Positions 11,929-45,250 of a stretch of DNA of 64,000 nucleotides are shown here, piece after piece (position 1 is the first letter of the stretch; the number at the start of each line of letters is the position of its first letter). Where the stretch lies: positions 639,754 through 703,753 of the forward strand of contig CAZAER010000001.1 of NCBI GenBank assembly GCA_964484195.1, in the 5' to 3' direction. Position numbers and translations under genes: made by a program. Source of the DNA: an uncultured Bdellovibrionales bacterium (GTDB taxonomy: Bacteria; Myxococcota; XYA12-FULL-58-9; JALHOP01). A model generated the notes under the pieces. That model saw nothing but the letters and a program-made list of their open reading frames with translations, had not been told where the DNA came from and did not search any database.

Positions 11929-12333
11929 CTAATGTTTCTCGCCGAAGAGCAAGACGTCCATCGACTCTTGATCGGCGGGCGTGAAGTCGAACTTGTCGAA
12001 GTCGCCTGAGCGGACCCACTGCATGTCGCGCACCGAACCTTTGCGCGGCGCGAGCGGTCCCAGGCTGCACTCGTAGAGCTTCAGCTCGACCACGTAGTCG
12101 TCGTACTCGTGGATGGTCGTCGAGATCAGGGCGCCGACATCGGGCGTGATACCCAGACGCTCGCGCAGCTCACGCCGCAACGCCGCGTCTTCGTATTCGC
12201 CTTCTTCGACTTTGCCGCCAGGGAACTCCCACTTGAGCGGCAACACGGCGCGCTCGGTCCGCTGGGTGATGAGATACTTGCCGTCTTTGCAGATGGCGGC
12301 ACTCACCACGCGAATGCGACGTTTCTCGACCAT
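11929..12333 (-). CDS. NUDIX hydrolase, MutT-like
   Basis: Nudix box GGKVEEGEYEDAALRRELRERLG. Confidence 0.8.
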   Translation of the reverse strand: MVEKRRIRVVSAAICKDGKYLITQRTERAVLPLKWEFPGGKVEEGEYEDAALRRELRERLGITPDVGALISTTIHEYDDYVVELKLYECSLGPLAPRKGSVRDMQWVRSGDFDKFDFTPADQESMDVLLFGEKH

Positions 12334-32621: not shown

Positions 32622-32700
32622 GCCCCCGTAGCTCAGATGGATAGAGCTGGGGTTTCCTAAACCCTGTAAGCCACAGGTTCGATTCCTGTCGGGGGCACCA
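32622..32700 (+). tRNA. tRNA-Arg (anticodon CCU)
   Basis: Acceptor stem GCCCCCG/CGGGGGC, T-arm ACAGG-TTCGATT-CCTGT, anticodon loop TTCCTAA, 3' ACCA. The 3' 23 nt are duplicated at 45111-45133. I could not resolve the variable-loop length cleanly by eye. Confidence 0.75.
32678..32700 (+). repeat. attL core, the 3' end of tRNA-Arg
   Basis: Identical 23-mer. Similarity to the partner site continues with mismatches for about 15 further bp. Confidence 0.8.
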
Positions 32701-32804: not shown

Positions 32805-32860
32805 GACGGTAACAGTCGGTAGCTCTGACGGTAACTCGACCCGGCGTGGGAGTTACCGTC
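32805..32860 (+). promoter_or_regulatory. GACGGTAAC repeats, two direct and one inverted, immediately upstream of the integrase start codon
   Basis: GACGGTAAC at 32805-32813 and 32827-32835. Inverted copy GTTACCGTC at 32852-32860. Two further copies (GACGGTAAC, GACGGTAGC) occur at 45047-45067 near attR. Confidence 0.4.
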
Positions 32861-34078
32861 ATGGCCCTGACTGAAACGAAGGTGCGCAACGCTAAGGCCG
32901 GCGCGAAGCCGTTCAAGGTCACGGACGGCGGTGGGCTCTACCTGTTGGTCACTCCCGCAGGCGGGCGTTGGTGGCGCTTCGACTACCGCTTTGCCGGCAA
33001 ACGCAAGACTCTCTCGATGGGCGTCTACCCTGACGTCTCGCTGAAACAAGCGCGTGAGCGTCGCGACGATGCGCGCCGCCGAGTCGCCGACGGTGTCGAT
33101 CCGGGCACCGCTCGGCAGCTCGAAAAATCCGGGCGCGCAGATCGCAGCGCCAACAGCTTCGAGGTTGTCGCGCGCGAGTGGCTCGCGAAATTTTCCCCGT
33201 CGTGGACCGCCGAATATGCGGAGCGCCTCGAGAGTCGCCTCGAGCGCGACGTATTCCCGTGGATCGGAGCGAGGCCCATAGGCGACGTGACCGCACCGGA
33301 GCTACTCACCGTGCTGCGCCGGATCGAAGCGCGCGGCGTGACCGAAACTGCTCACCGCGCCCTTCAAGATTGCGGGCGCGTCTTCTGCTACGCCGTCGCG
33401 ACCGGTCGCGCTGACCGCGATCCGTCGAGCGACCTGCGCGGAGCACTCGCGCCTGTTCGCCAAAAGCACTTCGCTTCGATCACCGATCCAGTGGCAGTCG
33501 GTGACCTGCTGCGCTCCATCGATGGCTACGAGGGCTCGGCCGTTACTCGATGCGCGATCCGCCTTGCACCCCTTGTCTTCGTCCGTCCCGGCGAGCTTCG
33601 ACACGCAGAGTGGAATGAATTCAACCTCGGCACGGCTGAGTGGCGCATCCCTGCCGCCAAGATGAAGATGCGCGACCCCCACATCGTTCCGCTATCGCGG
33701 CAGGCCGTCGACATCCTTCGCGCGCTGCACCCACTCACCGGCCACGGCCGCTACCTGTTCCCCGGCGTCCGCACAGCGCTCCGCCCGATGAGTGAGAACA
33801 CGGTGAACGCATCGTTGCGCCGCCTCGGCTTCACCAAAGACGAGATGACGGGCCACGGCTTCCGCAGCATGGCGTCGACGCTACTCAACGAGCAAGGCTG
33901 GAACCGCGACGCCATCGAGCGCCAACTCGCCCACGTTGAGCGCAACGCCGTGCGCGCCGCGTACAACTACGCTGAGCACCTGCCCGAGCGTCGCAAGATG
34001 ATGCAGGCGTGGGCGGATCACCTTGACGACCTTCGCGCCGGTGGCCGTCAAGTCGTGCGCATGATCCCCGCGGTGTAG
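32861..34078 (+). CDS. int: tyrosine recombinase/integrase, P4 type
   Basis: N-terminal DUF4102-like arm-binding region (LTETKVRNAKAG..GGGLYLLVTPAGGRWWRFDYRF) and a catalytic C-terminus with the R...HxxR...Y pattern (HGFRSMAST, RQLAHVE, Y). It is adjacent to a tRNA. Confidence 0.9.
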   Translation: MALTETKVRNAKAGAKPFKVTDGGGLYLLVTPAGGRWWRFDYRFAGKRKTLSMGVYPDVSLKQARERRDDARRRVADGVDPGTARQLEKSGRADRSANSFEVVAREWLAKFSPSWTAEYAERLESRLERDVFPWIGARPIGDVTAPELLTVLRRIEARGVTETAHRALQDCGRVFCYAVATGRADRDPSSDLRGALAPVRQKHFASITDPVAVGDLLRSIDGYEGSAVTRCAIRLAPLVFVRPGELRHAEWNEFNLGTAEWRIPAAKMKMRDPHIVPLSRQAVDILRALHPLTGHGRYLFPGVRTALRPMSENTVNASLRRLGFTKDEMTGHGFRSMASTLLNEQGWNRDAIERQLAHVERNAVRAAYNYAEHLPERRKMMQAWADHLDDLRAGGRQVVRMIPAV

Positions 34079-34090
34079 CCCAGGCCGCCG

Positions 34091-34288
34091 TCACCCATCA
34101 CAAGCGCAGCCGGTCGGTTGATGACACTCGAGCTGCCGATTGATGCAGGAATTGCCACAAGCCTTTCCCGTTGTGCAGATACGACAACACGCCATCGGGG
34201 TCGCGTCTTCGATCTCAATACATGCGTTCGCCGGCTGCATGCCCGCTGAACCGATGCCCATCAAGAAGCTTAGAACGAAACCAAGCAT
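34091..34288 (-). CDS. small Cys-rich protein with a hydrophobic N-terminus, hypothetical
   Basis: MLGFVLSFLMGIGSAG...ACCRICTTGKACGNSCINRQLECHQPTGCACDG. It occupies the otherwise empty gap after int. It may equally be the tail of an antisense artefact. Confidence 0.2.
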   Translation of the reverse strand: MLGFVLSFLMGIGSAGMQPANACIEIEDATPMACCRICTTGKACGNSCINRQLECHQPTGCACDG

Positions 34289-34394
34289 CGAGTGCTCCAC
34301 TCTCCCCGAGGAAAAGCATACTCGATGCGCTATCGCGGTGCGGCTGAAGCGCCGTTCACGATAGGCACCCCATGACGGCCTCGCCGGTTTCGCT

Positions 34395-35084
34395 TTGGTG
34401 GCGCAACATGCTACGTTTTGGCGGATGGCTGCTCGCCGGATTATCGGGGTGCTCGTAGGACTCTGTGTGTTCCTAATCGTGCCGCGCCTCTGTCGCGCAG
34501 CGAGAACGCACAAATGCTTTGTCTCGATCGCCGTACCGGACGGCGGCTTCACCCCTGAAGCGAAGGTTGACGTGCAGTTCTTCGTTGGAAGCGAGCTCAA
34601 CGCCTCGCTCGACGCACAGCGATTTCCCCCGGCGGCCGCCATCGCTGTCTTCGCTCTGCAAAAGGACATTGTTGTGGCCGTTCGCCTCTCATCGCCTGTT
34701 AGGGTTGAGGCTCCGTTGGTAGATAACGACATGGACGCGTTGTTTCGCGGAGTGCCCCACCTTCTCGGTGTTGATGGGGCGGCTAAGGGATGGCGATTGC
34801 GCTGCAAAGACCGAGGGCAATGGCTGGATGCGGCAGCGCGGCGACCGCTAGCGCCGGCCGCTCCCCGGCGTCGCGCAAGCGCCTGCGATAGCGGGCATTG
34901 GCTCGACAAGGTGTCGATGAATGGCGAGATCCTCGTGCTGGAAGATGGTTCGGTTTGGAGGGTGGATCCGGTCGACGCTGTCGACACCTCGCTATGGCTC
35001 CCTACGGAAGAAGTCGTCGCCTGCGACGACACCATCATCAACACCGACAATGGCGAGAAGGCTGATGCGATTCAGATCCGATAG
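34395..35084 (+). CDS. hypothetical membrane-anchored protein
   Basis: N-terminal transmembrane helix IIGVLVGLCVFLIV. C-terminal folded-looking domain (GEILVLEDGSVWRVDPVDAVDTSLW...IINTDNGEKADAIQI). Lower-GC DNA. Confidence 0.45.
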   Translation: MVAQHATFWRMAARRIIGVLVGLCVFLIVPRLCRAARTHKCFVSIAVPDGGFTPEAKVDVQFFVGSELNASLDAQRFPPAAAIAVFALQKDIVVAVRLSSPVRVEAPLVDNDMDALFRGVPHLLGVDGAAKGWRLRCKDRGQWLDAAARRPLAPAAPRRRASACDSGHWLDKVSMNGEILVLEDGSVWRVDPVDAVDTSLWLPTEEVVACDDTIINTDNGEKADAIQIR

Positions 35085-35588: not shown

Positions 35589-37757
35589 ATGAATGATACA
35601 CCTCGCGGTGACGCGCAGAGCGTCGTCGATCGCCTTCAGTCCAGTCTTACCGAGATGCACGCGGCGCTCGCCAAGACCGTGGCCGCGCTCAACGCGCCGA
35701 TCACCATCGTCGAGCCCGATTCGAGCTTGCCGCCTGACGAGCGCTCAATGGCTCGTGCCGAGGCGCAAGCACAGGCGCGGCGCCAACAAGGCTCGCCCGA
35801 GTTGTGGAAGATGGCGGCGCTACGGACGCGCTTGGAAGCAGAGCACGGGGCGGCAGTTGACGAGCTTGCCGTCGTCGCAGCCCTCGCGGGTGTCACGGTC
35901 GACCGCGCGGCTTTGACTGCCCCGTTCGAGCATTTCTCGAACCTGTTGCGAAGCCGGGGTTCCGACAGCACCTACGCGAGGCGACTTCAGGCGATCCCTG
36001 CACGGGTCGATACGCTCGCCCGGGCGTCCGCGCACCTGATCGACGTCGCGCGGAAGCTAGGATGTCGCCTGATCGCCGATGAGCCACGGCCCCCTCGAGA
36101 GACCCAGCCGTTACTGCCGGCCGCTAAGGCAAAACCCTGGTGGGCGGCAGACGGGTTCAAGCTGGAAAGCGTTTACGCTCAGTTACGTCTCGAGGTCGAC
36201 GACGCCATCGCTGGGCTCGACGACGCAACCGATGATCATGCAGTCGCTGCGCTCTTGCCCGGCTTTGCGGCAGCCGACATTGCGCACTGCCGTGACGAGA
36301 AGGTGCACCCGCTCGACCATTGGGTGGCGTCCGAGATTGCCGATCTAGTCGACGCCGAGCTTAGCGAGATTCTCGCTCGTGAGCCGCAACGCAACCGCTT
36401 CCGCCTGAAGAATGGCGCCGAGGTTACGGACGATACGCTTCAGCGGACGGCAGTCAGCCGCTATCGCTCTGGCATCGCACAATCCGCCAAGCCGGCAGAC
36501 ACCCCGGCCAAGGCCATCGCCCAGCTTCATGCGGGCTGCGATGTACTGGCCACTGCTTTTGCACGTGCTCTCGCGGCGCACACCGCGAGGATTGGTGCGC
36601 TGAAAATCGATGACGCCATCGCCGACCCGGAGGAGGCGCGCGAAGCGGCAGAACTCGACGCCATGGAAGCGAGAGGCTACCCCGAGCTCTTCGATTCTGT
36701 CCTGTTGAGGGCGCGAGTCGAGGAAGAGCAGACTGCGGCGCTTAACCGGCTGATTGGCTTCGCAGCCCAATCCCGCGCCGGCGTCGCCGTCGACCGGGCC
36801 GTGTTGACCGCACCGCACGCCTCGTTCGGCCATCTGCTGCATCCCGGTCAGCGGCATGCGAGCCGCGCCAAATGGCTGCAAGAAATGCTTGAACGGACAA
36901 TACCGGCTGCGCGCGCCCACCTAACGCAGCTAGCCTCCCGTCTGGGCGTCGAGCTGCAACACGGTCGCGACTGGCTGGCCTGTCGAAAAGTGCCCTGGAG
37001 CGCGACCGCTGAAACGGACACGTGGCGGCAGGTAAAGTCCGACCTTCGGACCTTGGATCGGGACGCGGTTCGCGAAATCCTCGGCGTCGATGAAGCTGAC
37101 CTTCGAGGCCTTGAGCTTCAACGAGACGAGCTGCAACAGACGAGCGGTTGGCGCACTTGCCCTGGCGAGGCCCACGTCGCCGACGTCTGGGCAATTCGAG
37201 ACATCGAATGGACGCCGCGGACCCTCGACCAAGTTTTTCACGATGGCGACTATGGCTCCGGCGCCAATCCCGATCGGCAATACAGGGTCGCGGGGGCGAG
37301 TGACGTCATTGACCCACGAGAGATCCAAGCGCGAGCCGCCCGGCAGATCCGCGCGGCGCTCGAGACGCTAGGGCGAACCTCGGCAGGCGCTAAAACGGAC
37401 GTCCCGCTGGCGCCGACCAAGAGCGCGCCTCTTCATTCATCGGACTTCACTTCGGTGACGCACGGCGGGGAGTCGTATCGCTTTTCCAAACGGCAGGCCG
37501 CGGCCATAGCGCTGCTTTGGCGCGAGTGGGCGCGAGGCACGCCTACCATCGCGGAGGAGACGCTCGCCGAAGAGCTTGATCCCAATTCGGAACGCGACCC
37601 CAAGCGCTTTCGGTTGCGCGACATCTTCAAAGGCAAGACGAAGGGCAAGAACGGCAAGCATCGGGCGCAGATGCACCCCGCGTGGGGCACGATGATCATC
37701 GTCGCGGAGGGCATCGCTCGCCTGTCGTTCGCAGAAAAGGGAATTTCCCCCAGCTAG
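35589..37757 (+). CDS. large hypothetical island protein with an internal tandem-duplicated domain
   Basis: Two roughly 90-aa segments clearly align: ...PELWKMAALRTRLEAEHGAAVDELAVVAALAGVTVDRAALTAPFEHFSNLL... against ...PELFDSVLLRARVEEEQTAALNRLIGFAAQSRAGVAVDRAVLTAPHASFGHLL... I recognise no known domain. Confidence 0.6.
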   Translation: MNDTPRGDAQSVVDRLQSSLTEMHAALAKTVAALNAPITIVEPDSSLPPDERSMARAEAQAQARRQQGSPELWKMAALRTRLEAEHGAAVDELAVVAALAGVTVDRAALTAPFEHFSNLLRSRGSDSTYARRLQAIPARVDTLARASAHLIDVARKLGCRLIADEPRPPRETQPLLPAAKAKPWWAADGFKLESVYAQLRLEVDDAIAGLDDATDDHAVAALLPGFAAADIAHCRDEKVHPLDHWVASEIADLVDAELSEILAREPQRNRFRLKNGAEVTDDTLQRTAVSRYRSGIAQSAKPADTPAKAIAQLHAGCDVLATAFARALAAHTARIGALKIDDAIADPEEAREAAELDAMEARGYPELFDSVLLRARVEEEQTAALNRLIGFAAQSRAGVAVDRAVLTAPHASFGHLLHPGQRHASRAKWLQEMLERTIPAARAHLTQLASRLGVELQHGRDWLACRKVPWSATAETDTWRQVKSDLRTLDRDAVREILGVDEADLRGLELQRDELQQTSGWRTCPGEAHVADVWAIRDIEWTPRTLDQVFHDGDYGSGANPDRQYRVAGASDVIDPREIQARAARQIRAALETLGRTSAGAKTDVPLAPTKSAPLHSSDFTSVTHGGESYRFSKRQAAAIALLWREWARGTPTIAEETLAEELDPNSERDPKRFRLRDIFKGKTKGKNGKHRAQMHPAWGTMIIVAEGIARLSFAEKGISPS

Positions 37758-37796: not shown

Positions 37797-38012
37797 ATGC
37801 AACAGCTCGTAAGCCTTCGGGCACTAGTCAGACACCTGCGACGCAGGTTCGGCGATGCGGACGCCGCGCAGCTTCGTCGAGATGCGCAGGCGGGCATCAT
37901 TCCCAGCGTGAGGTTGGGCGCGGCCCTCGCCTTCGACATTGGCGCCGTGGAGGCGGCGCTACTCGCGCGCGCTCGTGATGCCGCGAAAGCGCACGATGGG
38001 GGTGCGACGTGA
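37797..38012 (+). CDS. excisionase-family HTH protein, putative
   Basis: ...AGIIPSVRLGAALAFDIGAVEAALL resembles the Xis-family motif GELPAVRIGRRLRFRREDLEAFL. Its stop overlaps the alpA start (GTGA). Confidence 0.4.
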   Translation: MQQLVSLRALVRHLRRRFGDADAAQLRRDAQAGIIPSVRLGAALAFDIGAVEAALLARARDAAKAHDGGAT

Positions 38013-38242
38013 GCCACCCCGCGCACACCTTGCCCGCTGCGGGATATCTTCGTCTGAAGCAGATCATCGGCGACCGAGAACACACGCCGATCATCCCCGT
38101 CAGCAAGTCGACGTGGTGGGACGGCATCAAGAAAGGCCGATTCCCCCAGCCCGTGAAGCTCGGCCCCCGCACCACCGCGTGGCGCGTCGAGGACATCCGC
38201 GCGCTCATCGAGCGCACCAACGCGGTGGAGCCGATTCGATGA
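38009..38242 (+). CDS. alpA: AlpA-family phage transcriptional regulator / excisionase
   Basis: YLRLKQIIGD...IPVSKSTWWDGIKKGRFPQPVKLGPRTTAWRVEDIRALIE is a classic Phage_AlpA motif. GTG start. Confidence 0.85.
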   Translation: MSHPAHTLPAAGYLRLKQIIGDREHTPIIPVSKSTWWDGIKKGRFPQPVKLGPRTTAWRVEDIRALIERTNAVEPIR

Positions 38243-39291
38243 AAGCCTTCGACGAGTTGCGGGCGCTCGGCATCGCGAGCACCGCGCAAGCCATTGGCCT
38301 CAGCAAGGTTGGACGTCGGGGTTATGGCCCGTGTCCGCAATGCGGCGCAGTCACGAGGCACCGCAAGCGCAAGGACAAGCGCGGCGCCATCGGGGTGACG
38401 TTGGACGGTCACGGATGGGCGTGCTTCCAGTGCGACGCTCGTGGCGACGCCGCGCGCCTCGTAAGTCACGCGATTGGCTTGCACGGTCGCACCTCGGGTG
38501 CGGATGCGAGGCGCGTGCTCGAGGCGGCTCGGAACTGGGGCTTGATCGGTGAACACCCTCGTCAGGTCCTCGCGGTGCGGCGGGAAGCGACGGAGACGAG
38601 CGGCACCTATCCCCCCGCCGACGAAATCGCGTCGCTGCTGCGCGCATGCCATGCCCTCGGCACCCCTGGCACCGAAGCTGCCGAAGCGTGGGCCAGGTCG
38701 CGCGGCCTCGAGCCGGACGCGGTGGCCGAGCTGTGCGCCGTAACGGTTCTCTCGACGGATGCGAAGCTGCCCACGTGGGCGCGTACCGGCATGCGGTCCT
38801 GGCGCGACAGCGGTCATCGTTTGGTGGTCCCGCTCTATGACGCGCACGGAGTCGTTCGCAGCGTTCGGGCTCGGGACATCACCTCCCACGCTCGAATCAA
38901 AGAGCTGACGCCAAGCGGCCACACCGTGACAGCGCTCGTCATGGCGGACCGCAAGGCCTATCGCCTCTTGAAGGACGACACCTACGACGTGGACGAAACC
39001 ATGGCTGTGCACGTGCGCCGTGTCGGAGTCGTTGTCGCCGAAGGCACGCCGGACTGGCTTACCGCTCAGCTTGCGGGCGTTACGCAGCGCGGCGCCGATG
39101 CGCCCGCAGTCTTCGGCATCTTCAGCGGCGCCTGGACTCCCGAGCACGCAGCGAAGGTTCCGAGAGGAACGCCAATCCTGATCGCCACGGACCGAGACAA
39201 CCAAGGCGAAGCCTACGCGGCCAATATCGCCAGCACCTTCAGCGGACGATGCCCCTGTCGCCGTTGGCAACCGAAGTCGAGAAACGCATGA
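38239..39291 (+). CDS. DNA primase (CHC2 zinc finger plus Toprim), phage/P4 type
   Basis: Zinc finger CPQCGAVTRH...HGWACFQCDARGD. Toprim acidic motifs (VVVAEGTPDW...ILIATDRDNQGE). ATGA overlap with alpA. Confidence 0.8.
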   Translation: MKAFDELRALGIASTAQAIGLSKVGRRGYGPCPQCGAVTRHRKRKDKRGAIGVTLDGHGWACFQCDARGDAARLVSHAIGLHGRTSGADARRVLEAARNWGLIGEHPRQVLAVRREATETSGTYPPADEIASLLRACHALGTPGTEAAEAWARSRGLEPDAVAELCAVTVLSTDAKLPTWARTGMRSWRDSGHRLVVPLYDAHGVVRSVRARDITSHARIKELTPSGHTVTALVMADRKAYRLLKDDTYDVDETMAVHVRRVGVVVAEGTPDWLTAQLAGVTQRGADAPAVFGIFSGAWTPEHAAKVPRGTPILIATDRDNQGEAYAANIASTFSGRCPCRRWQPKSRNA

Positions 39292-40895
39292 GCGCAGTAG
39301 CGGACTTGAATAGTGTCGGCGTCAACGGCTTTCGCCTCGACGAATCCGAGCCGATCGACGACTCCACAGAATGGGAAATGCCGACCCCGTTTGGTGAGTA
39401 CGACGTGCCGGCGTTTCCCGACATCGAGGCGCCGACGCTCATGGCATTCGCGCGCGCGGTAGCAACGGCGACGCAGACGCCGGTCGATGCGGCGGCCCTG
39501 TTTGGACTGTCCGCAGTTGCCGCAGCGGTTGGCACGAAGGCGCGCATCGAGGCGCGCACGGGCTGGAGCGAACCGTTCTGCGTATTCGTCGCGGTCGCGC
39601 TCCCGCCAGGTAACCGCAAGAGCGCCGTGTTCAGCGAGGTGATCGCACCTCTGGGAGCCTGGGAGCGTCGCGAGGCTGAACGGTTGGCTCCGGCAATCGC
39701 GGCGCAGAAGTCGAAGCGCGCGGTGCTCGAGGCGCGTCACGAGAAGCTGGTGAAGGATGCCGCCAAGGCCGATGACATGGCCCAGCGCGGTGAGCTTCAG
39801 AGTCAGGCCGAACAGGTCGCCGCAGAGCTGGCGCTGACGCCGCTCATTGGAGCACCACAGATCACCGCCGACGACGCGACGCCCGAGGCGCTCGCGGCGC
39901 TTATGGCGATGAATCAAGGCAGCGTTGCCGTCATGTCCGCCGAGGGCGCGGGGCCGTTCGCCCTCATGGCGGGTCGCTACGACAAGAACGGCGCGCCAAA
40001 CTTCGAGCTGTATCTGAAGGGACACGCTGGCGATGCCGTGAAAGTTAACCGGCGCAACGCCGAGCCGATCAACCTGCCGCGACCCGCGCTCACGATGGCG
40101 ATCGCCGTTCAGCCGGATGTGTTGCGCGCGATGGCGGACATCCCTGGCGCCCGTGCCCGCGGCCTTGCGGCTCGCTTTCTCTACTCGCTTCCCGCGAGCA
40201 CCGTCGGTTACCGCGACTGCAACCCTCCCCCGGTGTCCGACAGCGTCCGGCGCTCGTGGAATACCGCGCTCGAAGCGCTGCTCAACCTCGAACACCGCCA
40301 AGACGGAGAGCCGCATGTCGTGCGTCTGTCGGCGGCAGCGGATGCTATCCTGCTCGCCTACCAACAGGAGCTTGAGCCGACGATGCGAAGCACCGGCGCC
40401 CTGTGCGCCATCGCCGACTGGGCGGGGAAAGCGGCGGGTCTCGCGGTCCGCCTGGCTGGGCTGATCCATGCGGTGAAGTATGCCGACAAGATGGCTGCTA
40501 CGTTGGTCGATGCCGGGACAATGAAAGCCGGCGTCGACGTCGCTCGCTACGCTACGGCGCACGCCATCGCGGCGTATGGCGAGATGGGACAGGACCCCGC
40601 CAATGCAGATGCGCGTTGGCTGCTCGAGTACCTCTCGCGCTGGGGGCGCTCGTCCTTCTCGGCTCGAGACCTGTTTTCGAGCTTGCCGCGAGGAAGGTTC
40701 AAGAAGGCAGACGACCTGCGCGGCGCACTCGCCGTTCTCGAGGACCGGGGCTTCGTGCGTGCGCGCGTATCGATGGAACGACTTGGGCCCGGACGTCCCC
40801 GCAGCCCTGTCTATGACGTTCACCCAAGCCTCCTTTCTGCGGCTTCTGCGGATTCTGCGCGTGGAGATCAGCACAGACGGGAAGCGTTTACGTGA
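39288..40895 (+). CDS. DUF3987-like protein, the usual partner of P4-type primases (replication-associated)
   Basis: Its size and position immediately downstream of the primase, with ATGA coupling, are typical of alpA-primase-DUF3987 modules in integrative elements. Confidence 0.55.
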   Translation: MSAVADLNSVGVNGFRLDESEPIDDSTEWEMPTPFGEYDVPAFPDIEAPTLMAFARAVATATQTPVDAAALFGLSAVAAAVGTKARIEARTGWSEPFCVFVAVALPPGNRKSAVFSEVIAPLGAWERREAERLAPAIAAQKSKRAVLEARHEKLVKDAAKADDMAQRGELQSQAEQVAAELALTPLIGAPQITADDATPEALAALMAMNQGSVAVMSAEGAGPFALMAGRYDKNGAPNFELYLKGHAGDAVKVNRRNAEPINLPRPALTMAIAVQPDVLRAMADIPGARARGLAARFLYSLPASTVGYRDCNPPPVSDSVRRSWNTALEALLNLEHRQDGEPHVVRLSAAADAILLAYQQELEPTMRSTGALCAIADWAGKAAGLAVRLAGLIHAVKYADKMAATLVDAGTMKAGVDVARYATAHAIAAYGEMGQDPANADARWLLEYLSRWGRSSFSARDLFSSLPRGRFKKADDLRGALAVLEDRGFVRARVSMERLGPGRPRSPVYDVHPSLLSAASADSARGDQHRREAFT

Positions 40896-41572
40896 GCGGC
40901 TCATCGAAGCGCAGCAGGAAGCGGAACGCACCAGGTGAGAGCGGCGCTCCTCCGAAGTCTCGGACCCTGACGGTACCCGGCCATGGTGACGTCTCTCGCG
41001 ACCGGGCTATCGCGCTGATCGCGACGTCGCCCTCAACCACCGCCGCAACACTCAGCGTCGACTATTCACGCGCCACCTTCGGCGAGTTGTCACTCACCGA
41101 TACCATGGCCGTGCTCTCGGAGACGCTCAAGGCTGTGCGGCAAGGCAGCCTCGCGGAAGTCGAAAACATCCTCATGGCGCAGGCCGTCGCGCTGAACTCG
41201 ATCTTCACCGACCTGAGCGTGCGTGCGGCTCGCGCCGAGTACGTCGACGGCATGGAGCGCTACCTGCGGCTGGGCCTCAAAGCGCAAGGTCAATGCCGGG
41301 CCACGCTCGAGACGCTGGCGGCAATCAAAAATCCCCCACTCGTCGTCACCCGCCAGGCAAACATCTCGAATGGCCCGCAGCAGGTTAACAATGGCGTGAC
41401 AGCCCAGGTGGCGCCGTCGCGCGCGGAGGGATCGGAAACTGCGCCAAACGAACTATTGGGAGAACGCTATGGCGAATGGCTGGACAGCGGAACGGAAAGC
41501 GCGACAGCGCGAAGCGATTCGTCAATGGCGCCCTTGGGAGAAGTCGACGGGGCCACGAAGCGACCCAGGTAA
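40892..41572 (+). CDS. hypothetical protein
   Basis: ATGA-coupled to the upstream gene. Composition is moderately protein-like. The 3' end is uncertain because an alternative frame (41469..41693) encodes a basic Arg/Lys-rich peptide. Confidence 0.35.
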   Translation: MSGSSKRSRKRNAPGESGAPPKSRTLTVPGHGDVSRDRAIALIATSPSTTAATLSVDYSRATFGELSLTDTMAVLSETLKAVRQGSLAEVENILMAQAVALNSIFTDLSVRAARAEYVDGMERYLRLGLKAQGQCRATLETLAAIKNPPLVVTRQANISNGPQQVNNGVTAQVAPSRAEGSETAPNELLGERYGEWLDSGTESATARSDSSMAPLGEVDGATKRPR

Positions 41573-41742: not shown

Positions 41743-41964
41743 ATGAACATCGACGAGAGCAGAACCCTGGTCGTGGGCGACGTGATCGTGATCGAGGATT
41801 CACGGCGTCATGAAGCACCTGCGGGGATGCAAGAGCTTATTTGGCTGGAGCCAAGCACCGAAGCCGCGGTCCAGAAGGTGAAAAGCCTCGACGGCAGCCT
41901 GACGACGATCACCGACATTCAACTTCTCGCGTACCGTAAGACCGGGAAACGTAAACAGATCTAG
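41743..41964 (+). CDS. small hypothetical protein of 73 aa, in low-GC DNA
   Basis: Strong Shine-Dalgarno GAAGGAGGTG 7 nt upstream of ATG 41743. MNIDESRTLVVGDVIVIEDSRRHEAPAGMQELIWLEPSTE... It is the first gene of the low-GC cassette. Confidence 0.45.
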   Translation: MNIDESRTLVVGDVIVIEDSRRHEAPAGMQELIWLEPSTEAAVQKVKSLDGSLTTITDIQLLAYRKTGKRKQI

Positions 41965-42132
41965 GTGAGGTCGCGTCACCGTGACGCAATTTATCAACCC
42001 GCCAGTTCGCGGTCGTGGTACGAAAACTCATCCGTGCTGTCGCACGGTGCGTCTCCTCCTCGAGGGTCGGCGCGTCACGATGAGCGTGCTCAGACGAGCA
42101 CACGGACCTGTTGGTCCAAAAAGGAATTTCTT

Positions 42133-43308
42133 ATGCGTATCCAGAAGTACGATTTTGCCTGCCTTAAGTCCTGCCGTTCCTTTCGCCTCGGAAACAAAGA
42201 ACTTTGGACCCTGACGGTTCGGTTGAAAGACCTGCCGAGGACGTTCACCTACGGTCCGAACGCGCGATTCGCCAGCCTGGACAAGAAGCCCGCGAAAGAG
42301 ATGCTCGCAACCCTGGCGAGTGATCCTGAAGCGTTCGTGTTGAACAACAACGGGATCATGCTCGTGGCAGAGAGCCTTCGCGCCGAGAGTGACTCGGTCG
42401 AACTCGTGTGCCACGAGGCCGAGACCGACGAAGAGATGCCCGGCCACGGCATCCTCAATGGCGGACACACGTACAAGGCGCTACAGGAAGCGCTCGCCAA
42501 CCCCAGCGAATACCCGCGCGCGGCCGACGAAGCCGTCGTCGTCGTCACAGTCGGCCTTGGCATCGGCAAGGATGACCGGGAGGAGATCTCTCGCATCTCC
42601 AAAGCGCGAAACACCTCAGAGAAAGTGCCGTTGCACGCACTGCGGGAACTCAACGGCGATTGGTCCGATCTGAAGCGGTACCTTCCCGAGGAGGCGAGGC
42701 CGCTCGTCGCGTTCAAGCCGGGCGAGAATCCCGAGGCCGAATTCGACGTTACCGATGTCGTGCGTCGCCTTGCGCTCTTCAATAACAGACTGTTCCCGGC
42801 GCAAGAGAGTGCGCATCCCGTTGCCGCGTACACGTCGATCGGGTCACTGGTGAAGAAGTACGACCAGAAGCATTTCTTCGACGTGGCGCCGCTGTTGCCG
42901 GATATCCTGCGGCTCGAGGAGCTTGTCGTTCAGTATTACGAATCGAGCAGCGGGCAGAAGGCGCGCGACCAAGCCAAGCTCGGCGTGATCACCAAATTGT
43001 CGGGCAATAGCCCCCAGCCGATGACATTGCTCAGCGGCTATCGCAGCTCGATGACGCTCGCCGACCCCTATGTTCTGCCGGTGGTCGCTGCCTTCCGCGT
43101 GTTCGTCCTCGACGGTGCTTGGAAGGCGGACATGGCGACTCTCTGGGACAAGTACGGTGCTCGTGTCGTCGGCGCCTTGCTGGATGCCTACAAGGAGCAA
43201 GGCAAGTCGAGCGCGGCTGTGTTCGGTCGCTCGAAGGGCTCGTGGGCTGCGGCCTGCGAACTGACCAAGGCCGTTGCCATCCAAGAAGGGTTCATTCGCA
43301 TCGGCTGA
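42133..43308 (+). CDS. Abi-like protein, a candidate AIPR-type abortive-infection protein
   Basis: MRIQKYDF... with a GILNGGHT motif reminiscent of the (I/V)xNGxQT motif I associate with AIPR-family phage-resistance proteins, recalled from memory and unverified. GC is markedly low, around 45-55% in sampled lines. Sits in the island's accessory end next to a HEPN-motif gene. Confidence 0.55.
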   Translation: MRIQKYDFACLKSCRSFRLGNKELWTLTVRLKDLPRTFTYGPNARFASLDKKPAKEMLATLASDPEAFVLNNNGIMLVAESLRAESDSVELVCHEAETDEEMPGHGILNGGHTYKALQEALANPSEYPRAADEAVVVVTVGLGIGKDDREEISRISKARNTSEKVPLHALRELNGDWSDLKRYLPEEARPLVAFKPGENPEAEFDVTDVVRRLALFNNRLFPAQESAHPVAAYTSIGSLVKKYDQKHFFDVAPLLPDILRLEELVVQYYESSSGQKARDQAKLGVITKLSGNSPQPMTLLSGYRSSMTLADPYVLPVVAAFRVFVLDGAWKADMATLWDKYGARVVGALLDAYKEQGKSSAAVFGRSKGSWAAACELTKAVAIQEGFIRIG

Positions 43309-43377
43309 AAGGACGAACGTGCCTGCCTGCGTCCGCAACGGCTCAGGCATGCCGTGTGTCTGCTATAGCGACAAGGC

Positions 43378-44034
43378 TTGGGAGCAATGGACCAGGAAAA
43401 GGCCAGCACCGGGGACACAGTAGCGCGTGGCACGCAGGCGGGAGCCTTTAAGGCGTTCGCGGCCAACATCAAGCGGGCCCGCGCATTCATCAGAATCTTT
43501 CACGGTGCAGAAGGACGAGAACGCGGGCAGCCGACGAAGGACGAGAAGGAACTTCTGCGCGGAGCGATCGTCTTCGCGGTGGGCGCACTGGACGCTTACT
43601 TGCACGACGTCGTGCTAGAGATCGTGCCTCGCTTCGGTCCCGAGGGAAAGTCGTTGCAGGAGGGCCTCAAGCAGATCGCCAAGGAAGACCCTGGGCTCGC
43701 TCTCCGGGTCGCTCTCGCGGCAACAAGCGAGGACGCGAAGGACGTTTTTCGCGGTGCGCTCAGCGCCTGGCTCGATGAGAAGTCGTTCCAAGGCCCGGAA
43801 GCTGTCGTTCGTGTCCTAGGCTACCTGGGACTCGAAACGAAGGGGGGCGTCGACGCCCTGGTCGAGGAGGGTGCGTCGGCGCGGCTGCAATCGTTGACGG
43901 AGCAGCGCCACAACGTGGTCCATAGAGCTACGAGCGATCGGATCACCAGGGACGACGCAACCAACGCCGTAGACCTTGTCGAGTCCGTCGCGTCGGCAGT
44001 GAACGCATTGGTCAAGTCGAAGTATGACACCTAA
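43378..44034 (+). CDS. HEPN-domain protein (putative RNase effector or partner)
   Basis: C-terminal Rx4H motif (EQRHNVVHRATSDR) in an all-helical protein of about 215 aa. Confidence 0.5.
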   Translation: MGAMDQEKASTGDTVARGTQAGAFKAFAANIKRARAFIRIFHGAEGRERGQPTKDEKELLRGAIVFAVGALDAYLHDVVLEIVPRFGPEGKSLQEGLKQIAKEDPGLALRVALAATSEDAKDVFRGALSAWLDEKSFQGPEAVVRVLGYLGLETKGGVDALVEEGASARLQSLTEQRHNVVHRATSDRITRDDATNAVDLVESVASAVNALVKSKYDT

Positions 44035-44179
44035 CCCCCTCGCCGAGGGACTCGTCGATGGCTCCGCGGCTTGCCTCGTGACGCGTGCTGTGTTTTAGCG
44101 GACGCCCTAGGCTGTGGCGTATCGGTTCGCACGATTGTGAATCACTTGGTGCCGCGGACTTGCAGTTGGCTCGAACCCG

Positions 44180-44983
44180 TTGGAGGAGCCCGTGGCGGAC
44201 ACCGAAGCACGAACGGCCGCAAAGCTCGATCTTGGGCGAACGGCCATCGTCGCGCTGAGCGCGGACTACGAAGACCGCATTGACGACTTACGAGCGGCCG
44301 AGGGCAAGGGCCAAAACATTCTCGCATTGTGCGGCGCCCTCGTTGCGGTGTGCTTCGCCATGCTGAGCGCGGACGCCGATCTGCCAATCTTCGATGCGAC
44401 AGGCTTGACGCTCGTCTTTGCAATCGTGGTTGCGCTGGTCGGTGCTGGTGGTCTGGCTACATCTACGTTCCAACCTCGAGCGTTTCCGAGCCGGCCCAAT
44501 GCGGGTGAATTGCTTCGGCTTGCCAGGGAGCTTCAGTCGTCCGGCGAGCCGGAGGAGCTTTCGAACCTTCTCTTTGACTACGCGATCCAATGGCCGAAAC
44601 AGCTCGAGGCCTTGCAGGAGGTTGTCAGGGCCAAGTCGACCGCTCTCGTCAGGGCACAGCGATGCCTATTGTTCGCAGTATTGTTGGGGGTCGGTCTTTT
44701 CGTCCGGACGGCGATAACAATCGCGATGGGGAAGGTGCATGGCGAAATGCATGAAACGGCAATGTACGGAGCCACGGATGAGCGGCAGCCTTCATTGTGC
44801 GCTTCATCAGGATTGGGAAATGGGCGGGCCGCGCTACCGAACAGACGCGAGTGCGAAGGACCCGTGGGGGCCGCTCCTGAACGAAACGTGGGTGGGAACC
44901 GGCAAGAAGAAGGCGAAGAAAAGCAGCCGCCGCAGCAAGCAGGTCAAGCTCGCAACGAAGAGCGCCAAGCATGCGGCTGGTGA
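44180..44983 (+). CDS. hypothetical membrane protein with three predicted transmembrane helices
   Basis: Hydrophobic helices ILALCGALVAVCFAML, LTLVFAIVVALVGAGGLA, LLFAVLLGVGLFV. The C-terminal 80 aa of the ORF look non-coding, so the true end may be near 44750. Confidence 0.4.
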   Translation: MEEPVADTEARTAAKLDLGRTAIVALSADYEDRIDDLRAAEGKGQNILALCGALVAVCFAMLSADADLPIFDATGLTLVFAIVVALVGAGGLATSTFQPRAFPSRPNAGELLRLARELQSSGEPEELSNLLFDYAIQWPKQLEALQEVVRAKSTALVRAQRCLLFAVLLGVGLFVRTAITIAMGKVHGEMHETAMYGATDERQPSLCASSGLGNGRAALPNRRECEGPVGAAPERNVGGNRQEEGEEKQPPQQAGQARNEERQACGW

Positions 44984-45035
44984 CAAGGTGAAGTCGGAAC
45001 GGTCGATTCCCAAGCCACCTCGCCGCAAGCGATAG
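44739..45035 (+). CDS. small Cys/His-containing basic protein, hypothetical
   Basis: MAKCMKRQCTEP...SLHCALHQDW followed by a Lys/Arg-rich tail. Alternative frame overlapping the end of the preceding ORF. Ends 75 bp before attR. Confidence 0.25.
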   Translation: MAKCMKRQCTEPRMSGSLHCALHQDWEMGGPRYRTDASAKDPWGPLLNETWVGTGKKKAKKSSRRSKQVKLATKSAKHAAGDKVKSERSIPKPPRRKR

Positions 45036-45110: not shown

Positions 45111-45133
45111 AACAGGGCCTTTCGATTCCTGTC
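45111..45133 (+). repeat. attR core, a duplicated 3' fragment of the tRNA
   Basis: Identical 23-mer with no upstream tRNA body. Confidence 0.8.
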
Positions 45134-45250
45134 GGGGGCACCACAAACCAGTCCGAGGAAGTCGAACACAGCCCGAAGTCGCACGGAAACGCAGGATACT
45201 GGGCGACTTGAGCGTGCGACGACGCACAATCCGCAAAACGGAGTGGGCGT

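Follow-up and report, generated by a model that had tools for sequence, protein, structure and literature searches.

Genes of the segment and their families

In this work we analysed a stretch of 64,000 nucleotides (nt), referred to as the window, from contig CAZAER010000001.1 (positions 639,754 to 703,753, assembly GCA_964484195.1) of an uncultured Bdellovibrionales bacterium, and in it a gene cassette at 41.7–45.1 kb that occupies the attR-proximal end of an island inserted at a tRNA-Arg gene. The cassette encodes a protein of the AIPR family, a HEPN protein, a membrane protein and two small open reading frames (ORFs). The genes are of known kinds, but the host group is new for them and the AIPR protein consists of the AIPR domain alone; the locus is a fairly ordinary defence islet and not a new system. 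Its features are as follows (lengths of proteins in amino acids, aa; GC3, G+C content at third codon positions; TM, transmembrane):

32622–32700, plus strand: tRNA-Arg(CCT), found with ARAGORN, whose 3′ 22 nt (32679–32700) are the attL copy of the repeat
41743–41964, plus strand: 73-aa ORF preceded by a strong Shine–Dalgarno sequence (AAGGAGGTG), GC3 0.72
41990–42132, plus strand: conserved leader/promoter region travelling with the AIPR gene, about 90% identical in DNA to the locus of the closest AIPR relative (L002)
42133–43308, plus strand: short-form (domain-only) AIPR/AbiU1-family protein, 391 aa, Pfam PF10592
43387–44034, plus strand: stand-alone RiboL-PSP-HEPN protein, 215 aa, PF18735, Rx4H motif at R174–H179
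44192–44983 (alternative start 44180), plus strand: three-TM PycTM/SLATT-like protein, 263 aa, identified from a PF18967 tag and PADLOC
44739–45035, plus strand: candidate 98-aa ORF in another frame, overlapping the last 245 nt of the membrane-protein ORF
45122–45143, plus strand: attR copy of the tRNA 3′ 22 nt, an exact repeat that marks the island boundary

An exact repeat search finds the 22-nt direct repeat at 32679–32700 and 45122–45143, with a chance expectation of 0. Because the 3′ 22 nt of the tRNA recur exactly at the second position, the island measures 12.4 kb.

The 391-aa product is a genuine member of the AIPR family. It scores 99.9 bits against PF10592 (cut-off 25, E 2.9e-28), with residues 42–360 covering profile positions 3–303 of 308, and this bears out the family that had been proposed from a GILNGGHT motif. 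The motif is a true signature of the family, GHGxLNGGHT being invariant among homologues together with GPNAR, NNGIM and ARNxS; in the protein itself NNGIM (72–76), LNGGHT (108–113) and ARNTS (158–162) are unchanged across 26 homologues, and all the core motifs tested, NNG(I/M), (I/V/L)NG(A/G)(Q/H)T and (T/A)(R/N)N, are present. The 97 homologues found come mainly from Myxococcota and cyanobacteria; the full-length ones measure 387–412 aa and all homologues begin at the same methionine as the 42133 start. Neither the AIPR nor the HEPN protein was assigned to a named system by PADLOC or NCBIfam, save for a marginal MzaE match (0.024). In the literature AIPR is a standard marker of abortive infection (Abi)-type defence.

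Makarova et al. assigned AbiU1, AIPR and COG1479 to the ParB superfamily, with a ParB/Srx core (PMC3632139). The structure model of the AIPR protein (mean predicted local distance difference test, pLDDT, 82.6) has a weak structural similarity to ParB/Srx; a Foldseek search with the model gave no significant match, and the sequence profile gave none among solved ParB and DUF262 structures.

The domain begins at residue 42 in this protein and at residue 245 in the Escherichia coli P4 AIPR protein, so that an N-terminal extension of about 245 residues is absent here. The sequence-only reading had suggested that AIPR proteins may carry a C-terminal HEPN domain, which does not agree with the literature, where the extra HEPN domain is placed at the N-terminus (a 2012 statement, PMC3506569). 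By eye, residues 1–245 of the E. coli P4 protein (pFR77) contain a D...GIDAI...VQSKW pattern that resembles a PD-(D/E)xK nuclease motif. No Rx4-6H motif was seen in this extension, also by eye, which conflicts with the N-terminal HEPN of PMC3506569.

Upstream of the AIPR gene, the leader at 41990–42132 is conserved with L002 about as strongly as the coding region. It contains two hairpins, CCGTGCTGTCGCACGG (42032–42047) and GTGCTC-AGAC-GAGCAC (42086–42101), and its RNA fold has a z-score of −2.2; a role as operator or as regulatory leader is possible. A scan of the segment against Rfam returned nothing meaningful.

The protein that follows the AIPR protein had been proposed as a HEPN protein from its RHNVVHR (Rx4H) motif, and profile, motif and fold agree with this proposal. 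It scores 38.2 bits against PF18735 (cut-off 28.4, E 1.9e-9), the family with which most of its homologues are tagged in precomputed Pfam annotation, and has a weak Swt1-like match (0.1) in Pfam. R174 is invariant and H179 nearly so among 23 sequences, whose consensus is RHxIVHRG. The fold is an all-alpha HEPN fold, with best structural matches that include HepT toxins. Gene callers start the protein at the ATG at 43387 (215 aa), a TTG at 43378 giving 218 aa. It is a single-domain protein with no fused endoribonuclease L-PSP domain, and PADLOC gave no match for it.

The downstream protein with three predicted TM helices, read from 44180 or 44192 to 44983, was likewise recovered, with hydrophobic segments at about residues 43–62, 70–92 and 157–180. 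In line with its suggested role as an effector, it resembles known defence effectors, as seen in the PADLOC PycTM match and in the PF18967 (PycTM) tag of the public precomputed annotation. Its own PADLOC scores are weak (0.0011 for the 2TM effector and 0.018 for PycTM), and hmmscan against Pfam gave no PycTM match for the protein or any of its 27 relatives, a discrepancy with the PF18967 tag that a difference in filter or version might explain. A word search retrieved only the protein itself, while an exhaustive search retrieved these 27 distant relatives, mostly of 170–190 aa and aligned to residues 10–177. Of the 28 members of the family, counting the query, 24 are matched by PADLOC PycTM models (best 1.3e-7) and two by SLATT models associated with reverse transcriptases. 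A KAQ motif ahead of the two N-terminal TM helices is conserved, as are K39, Q41, K148 and Q156. No cyclic nucleoside monophosphate (cNMP)-binding domain was matched in the protein, whose soluble parts amount to about 40 and 60 residues, and the island genes scanned include no pyrimidine cyclase or other cyclase, CD-NTase or reverse transcriptase that could be its partner.

Linkage between the cargo genes

The small ORF, AIPR gene, HEPN gene and membrane-protein gene had been read as an undescribed four-gene system. This proposal is not supported: a search of genomes, viral contigs, metagenomes and plasmids found no second locus at which even two of the four genes occur together, and we rejected the conserved cassette. 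About 28 loci that contain AIPR relatives are without this HEPN protein, small ORF or membrane protein, no homologue of the three is present in 15 genome and 7 viral loci of AIPR relatives, and AIPR is absent from about 45 loci of HEPN relatives.

The closest AIPR relative shows where the linkage ends. It is 97% identical in amino acids and is encoded in L002 (assembly GCA_034286235.1, JANPYG010006622.1, 1–12263), an island that comprises a Prim-Pol/AAA_25 replication module, ApeA, a Dsr1-like protein of 1079 aa and the AIPR gene. A primase-bearing island is one of the contexts in which the sequence-only reading proposed to look for relatives. L002 ends at the same att sequence (12240–12263), and the two islands thus have their insertion site and one cargo gene in common. 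DNA homology between them runs from about 41990, some 140 nt before the start codon of the AIPR gene, exactly to its stop codon at 43308. On the 3′ side of the AIPR gene, L002 encodes unrelated proteins of 73 and 193 aa, beside the same att sequence, and on the 5′ side the 73-aa ORF of our island lies outside the recombination unit and is absent from L002. The AIPR gene has moved as a single unit whose end is the stop codon. This is cargo turnover seen at single-gene resolution, the AIPR gene and its leader being common to two islands at the same tRNA site.

More distant relatives give the same picture. Downstream of the five closest AIPR relatives lie five different, unrelated genes; at 86% identity the next gene is lipoprotein-like, at 69% it is a 198-aa gene without known function, and at 64%, on the chromosome of Archangium gephyra, it is a convergent Biopterin_H gene. 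Other downstream neighbours are a molybdopterin oxidoreductase, an aminotransferase, a kinase, a C5 methylase and an AAA_15/21 protein, and the defence context of the relatives includes the last two and DUF4238. AIPR and HEPN relatives usually stand alone, and HEPN relatives often fall below their neighbours in GC3, which would be expected of single-gene insertions. The recognisable neighbours of HEPN relatives belong to defence or to mobile elements: with Pfam matches these were a Gabija-like pair, Mrr with a restriction-modification system in an integrative and conjugative element, and DUF3800; several neighbours have no match. A recurring partner of the HEPN protein, a ParB-like one included, was considered and rejected, as neighbours are not repeated between distinct loci.

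These observations lead us to favour, with a probability of roughly 60%, a model in which the 41.7–45.1 kb region is an attR-proximal cargo hotspot that holds a defence islet of genes moving, and most likely acting, independently. By analogy with AbiUi, the AIPR protein would be a nucleotide-dependent, nucleic-acid-directed Abi protein, whose gene travels with its own leader of about 140 nt. The HEPN protein would be an RNase that infection switches on and whose substrate is cellular or phage RNA, and the PycTM/SLATT-like protein, which has no cyclase partner, might act by membrane disruption.

Several points weigh against this model. The families, the folds, the limits of the island and the missing conserved linkage are observed, whereas we infer the anti-phage function and each biochemical activity from family membership, and the E. 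coli P4 AIPR protein that was tested (pFR77, Table S2B) appears in a table of additional, non-validated systems (PMC9122126). Many of the metagenome contigs surveyed are short, which makes missing neighbours only partly informative. All five ORFs of the cassette are on the same strand with gaps of 78–168 nt, and neither a plus-strand intrinsic terminator nor a sigma-70-type promoter was found in the cassette, so that the genes may be co-transcribed. The short AIPR protein is without the N-terminal extension of the long forms and might depend on an effector provided in trans. Finally, there are precedents for an association of ParB-like or AIPR proteins with HEPN: lactococcal AbiU, in which AbiUi (AIPR) is followed by AbiUii (HEPN) (PMC13064643), DndB, in which a ParB-like domain is fused to a HEPN domain (PMC3632139), and the RiboL-PSP-HEPN family, listed as 'in operon with ParB' in a HEPN survey (PMC3710099).

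The precedents also speak for the main alternative explanation, an AbiU-like system of two or three components in which a long AIPR protein is split, the AIPR protein senses or regulates, and the HEPN protein, possibly with the membrane protein, is an effector in trans. The sequence-only reading had suggested such a split AIPR + HEPN version. The adjacency on which that suggestion was based is real, with a 78-nt gap on the same strand and no terminator found between the two genes, and the start of the AIPR domain at residue 42 instead of 245 would fit a split; the pairing, however, recurs in none of the approximately 28 AIPR and 45 HEPN loci. Moreover, the recombination boundary coincides exactly with the stop codon of the AIPR gene, and the genes downstream of the five closest AIPR relatives are unrelated, one being lipoprotein-like and one convergent on a seemingly ordinary chromosome. 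In AbiU itself the HEPN partner is dispensable and lowers activity (PMC13064643), and the HEPN protein here is of the RiboL-PSP family (plus a weak Swt1 match), another family than AbiU2. We therefore regard an AbiU-like system as unlikely.

More speculatively, the domain-only AIPR protein might act as a ParB-like nucleotide switch, having shed its built-in nuclease, and make use of interchangeable downstream effector cassettes, a possibility that we consider quite unlikely. If it were true, the effectors would be the HEPN RNase and the SLATT-like pore protein here and the pair of 73-aa and 193-aa proteins in L002, and this modular sensor-effector system would exchange its effectors at the joint that coincides with the AIPR stop codon. 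The short AIPR subfamily delimited by the survey is well populated in myxobacteria and cyanobacteria, with distant short forms on Firmicutes plasmids and phage contigs, and because it is without the N-terminal extension of the long forms it offers a convenient minimal form for studying the AIPR domain. Phage contigs contain the distant short AIPR genes as single morons. On two Firmicutes plasmids, L073 (NZ_CP022931.1, 3802–5396) and L074 (NZ_KF559312.1, 3624–5170), a distant short AIPR gene is accompanied by a divergent helix–turn–helix (HTH) regulator gene; in a 5.6-kb Enterococcus plasmid a short AIPR gene and a divergent HTH regulator gene are essentially the sole cargo.

Island backbone, base composition and small ORFs

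The rest of the island contains the following genes:

32846–34078, plus strand: P4-type tyrosine integrase, with Pfam matches Arm-DNA-bind_3 (7e-28), Phage_int_M (1e-37) and Phage_integrase (1e-18)
34091–35050, minus strand: 319-aa ORF
35589–37757, plus strand: 722-aa ORF
38009–40895, plus strand: replication/regulation backbone, from called genes and Pfam tags, with an AlpA-like gene, a primase-like 350-aa gene and a DUF3987 gene
40892–41572, plus strand: 226-aa backbone gene (called gene)

The DUF3987 gene has a Pfam match at 2.7e-91, and the primase-like gene has weak Zn_Ribbon_Prim and Toprim_2 matches. The 226-aa gene gave no match in Pfam, PADLOC, NCBIfam or PHROGs. The P4-type integrase, the tRNA insertion with direct repeats and the primase/DUF3987 module are features by which P4-like satellites are recognised, and they uphold the earlier placement of the cassette at the variable end of a P4-like integrative element. 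No domains of the capsid-hijacking genes psu, delta or sid were found in the island ORFs scanned, of which the 319-aa and 722-aa ORFs are without any match (Pfam, PADLOC and PHROGs). These two ORFs occupy the stretch from the integrase to the AlpA-like gene. Since they are adjacent to int, like the P4 defence hotspot, they may represent a second site of cargo.

The position of the AIPR gene directly 3′ of the island replication genes, and the weak similarity of its product to ParB/Srx structures, raise the question of whether the protein works for the island, for instance with a ParB-like role in partition, replication or transcription, and whether the remaining genes are passengers with no immune role. 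Such a function is highly doubtful: AIPR relatives are found away from replication modules, as solo chromosomal genes and phage morons, the AIPR gene of L002 accompanies a different replication module (Prim-Pol/AAA_25), and the family is associated with defence in the literature. The cassette is better explained as independent defence cargo.

The cassette had also been described as sharply lower in G+C than a background of roughly 70%, with sampled lines at about 45–55%. Among stretches of 3.3 kb the segment does have the lowest G+C content in the window, a value reached by 0.3% of them. The size of the contrast was overstated: the mean of the window is 65.3% and that of the segment 60.9%, a difference of 4.4 points, and 15% of the 60-nt lines of the segment fall within 45–55%. 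GC3 is 0.70–0.78 in the cassette genes and 0.72–0.78 in the island and flanking genes; since the two match, the dip comes from codon positions 1 and 2 and not from foreign codon usage. A foreign low-G+C cassette was therefore rejected, with a dip of about 4 points and GC3 values like those of the neighbours.

The small upstream ORF and its strong ribosome-binding site are as the sequence-only reading had described them, and all four ORFs of that reading agree with public gene calls. Homologues of this 73-aa ORF occur solely on contigs of this same island. The 98-aa ORF, in contrast, was missed by that reading and is uncalled in public annotations. It encodes a CxxxxC...CxxH motif and a tail rich in lysine and arginine, and its GC3 is 0.73, against 0.54 for the tail of the membrane-protein ORF that it overlaps, which indicates that the coding signal sits in the 98-aa frame. 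Neither small ORF has a family match in Pfam, PADLOC, NCBIfam or PHROGs. On the short contig of the closest relative of the membrane protein (P0172), a small ORF likewise overlaps the end of the TM gene.

Small ORFs without known function flank the cassette, HEPN proteins are common as toxins of toxin-antitoxin pairs, and HepT is among the best structural matches of the HEPN protein. These facts would fit one or more modules for addiction or stabilisation, by which the island would be retained in the genome, for instance a HEPN toxin with an unrecognised small-ORF antitoxin, with phage defence not the main role. But no MNT or other known antitoxin domain was found in the cassette proteins scanned, the relatives of the HEPN protein are mostly alone and have no recurrent small partner, and the small ORFs are not beside the HEPN gene, which makes an addiction module very unlikely.

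The 98-aa ORF also draws attention to the end of the membrane-protein gene. The homologous domain stops at about 44770, and the last 70 or so codons are missing from most relatives and have a weak coding signal. Because most relatives end where the query has Tyr192/Gly193, the 263-aa ORF may have arisen by loss of a stop codon, with the gene reading into the next ORF. This tail, with its GC3 of 0.54, is the argument for a cargo that is in part decaying and non-functional. We find this hardly probable for the cassette, as the 190 homologous residues of the membrane protein are intact, with the four conserved lysine and glutamine residues in place, and as the AIPR and HEPN proteins are full length with all invariant residues present.

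Comparison with known systems

The HEPN protein shares with HepT, AbiD/F-like and RiboL-PSP-HEPN proteins the four-helix fold, the Rx4H motif and a location in mobile elements or defence islands (Anantharaman et al., 2013). It differs from the HepT-type and RiboL-PSP-HEPN RNases in that there is neither an MNT antitoxin nor an L-PSP fusion. The membrane protein resembles Pycsar PycTM and the SLATT effectors of CBASS and DRT systems by its two N-terminal TM helices after KAQ and its third, C-terminal helix, while the scores of the query are weak (E 0.001–0.02) and the cyclase, CD-NTase or reverse transcriptase partner and the cNMP-binding domain of those systems are lacking.

For the AIPR protein, the ParB/Srx-fold defence nucleoside triphosphatases are a first term of comparison, namely DUF262 of GmrSD/BrxU and SspE, and the DGQHR domain of DndB. 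In the structure model, LNGGHT lies in a conserved glycine-rich loop that follows a strand and precedes a helix, and this loop may be equivalent to the DGQQR/DGQHR position. The AIPR protein differs in having no HNH/DUF1524 or other recognisable nuclease domain.

Lactococcal AbiU is closer in organisation, with an AIPR gene followed by a separate HEPN gene in an abortive-infection context (Dai et al., 2001; PMC13064643), and AbiUi/AbiU1 is treated in the literature as the founding member of AIPR. AbiUi is a long protein of about 570–590 aa with an N-terminal nuclease-like domain (PMC13064643), whereas the protein described here measures 391 aa and consists of the AIPR domain alone. The HEPN partner of AbiU belongs to the AbiU2 family and that of our locus to RiboL-PSP, and relatives of our genes do not keep the pairing. 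On its own, AbiUi delays phage transcription, and the HEPN gene of AbiU is dispensable and dampens defence (PMC13064643).

The best parallel for the setting is provided by the P4-like satellites of E. coli, in which AIPR is also an accessory cargo of an island with a P4-type integrase; for the P4 hotspots of this species, Rousset et al. (2022, PMC9122126) list AIPR as a single-gene cargo. The E. coli P4 protein is a long form, with the core motifs YNNGITIV, IVNGAQT and TNNRQN, and its similarity to the protein studied here is marginal (BLASTP E 2e-4 over 28 residues). The P4 hotspot lies between int and psu, whereas the cargo studied here is at the far, attR end of the island. Our locus thus adds to the enterobacterial examples a non-enterobacterial, high-GC P4-type island with defence cargo at its attR end.

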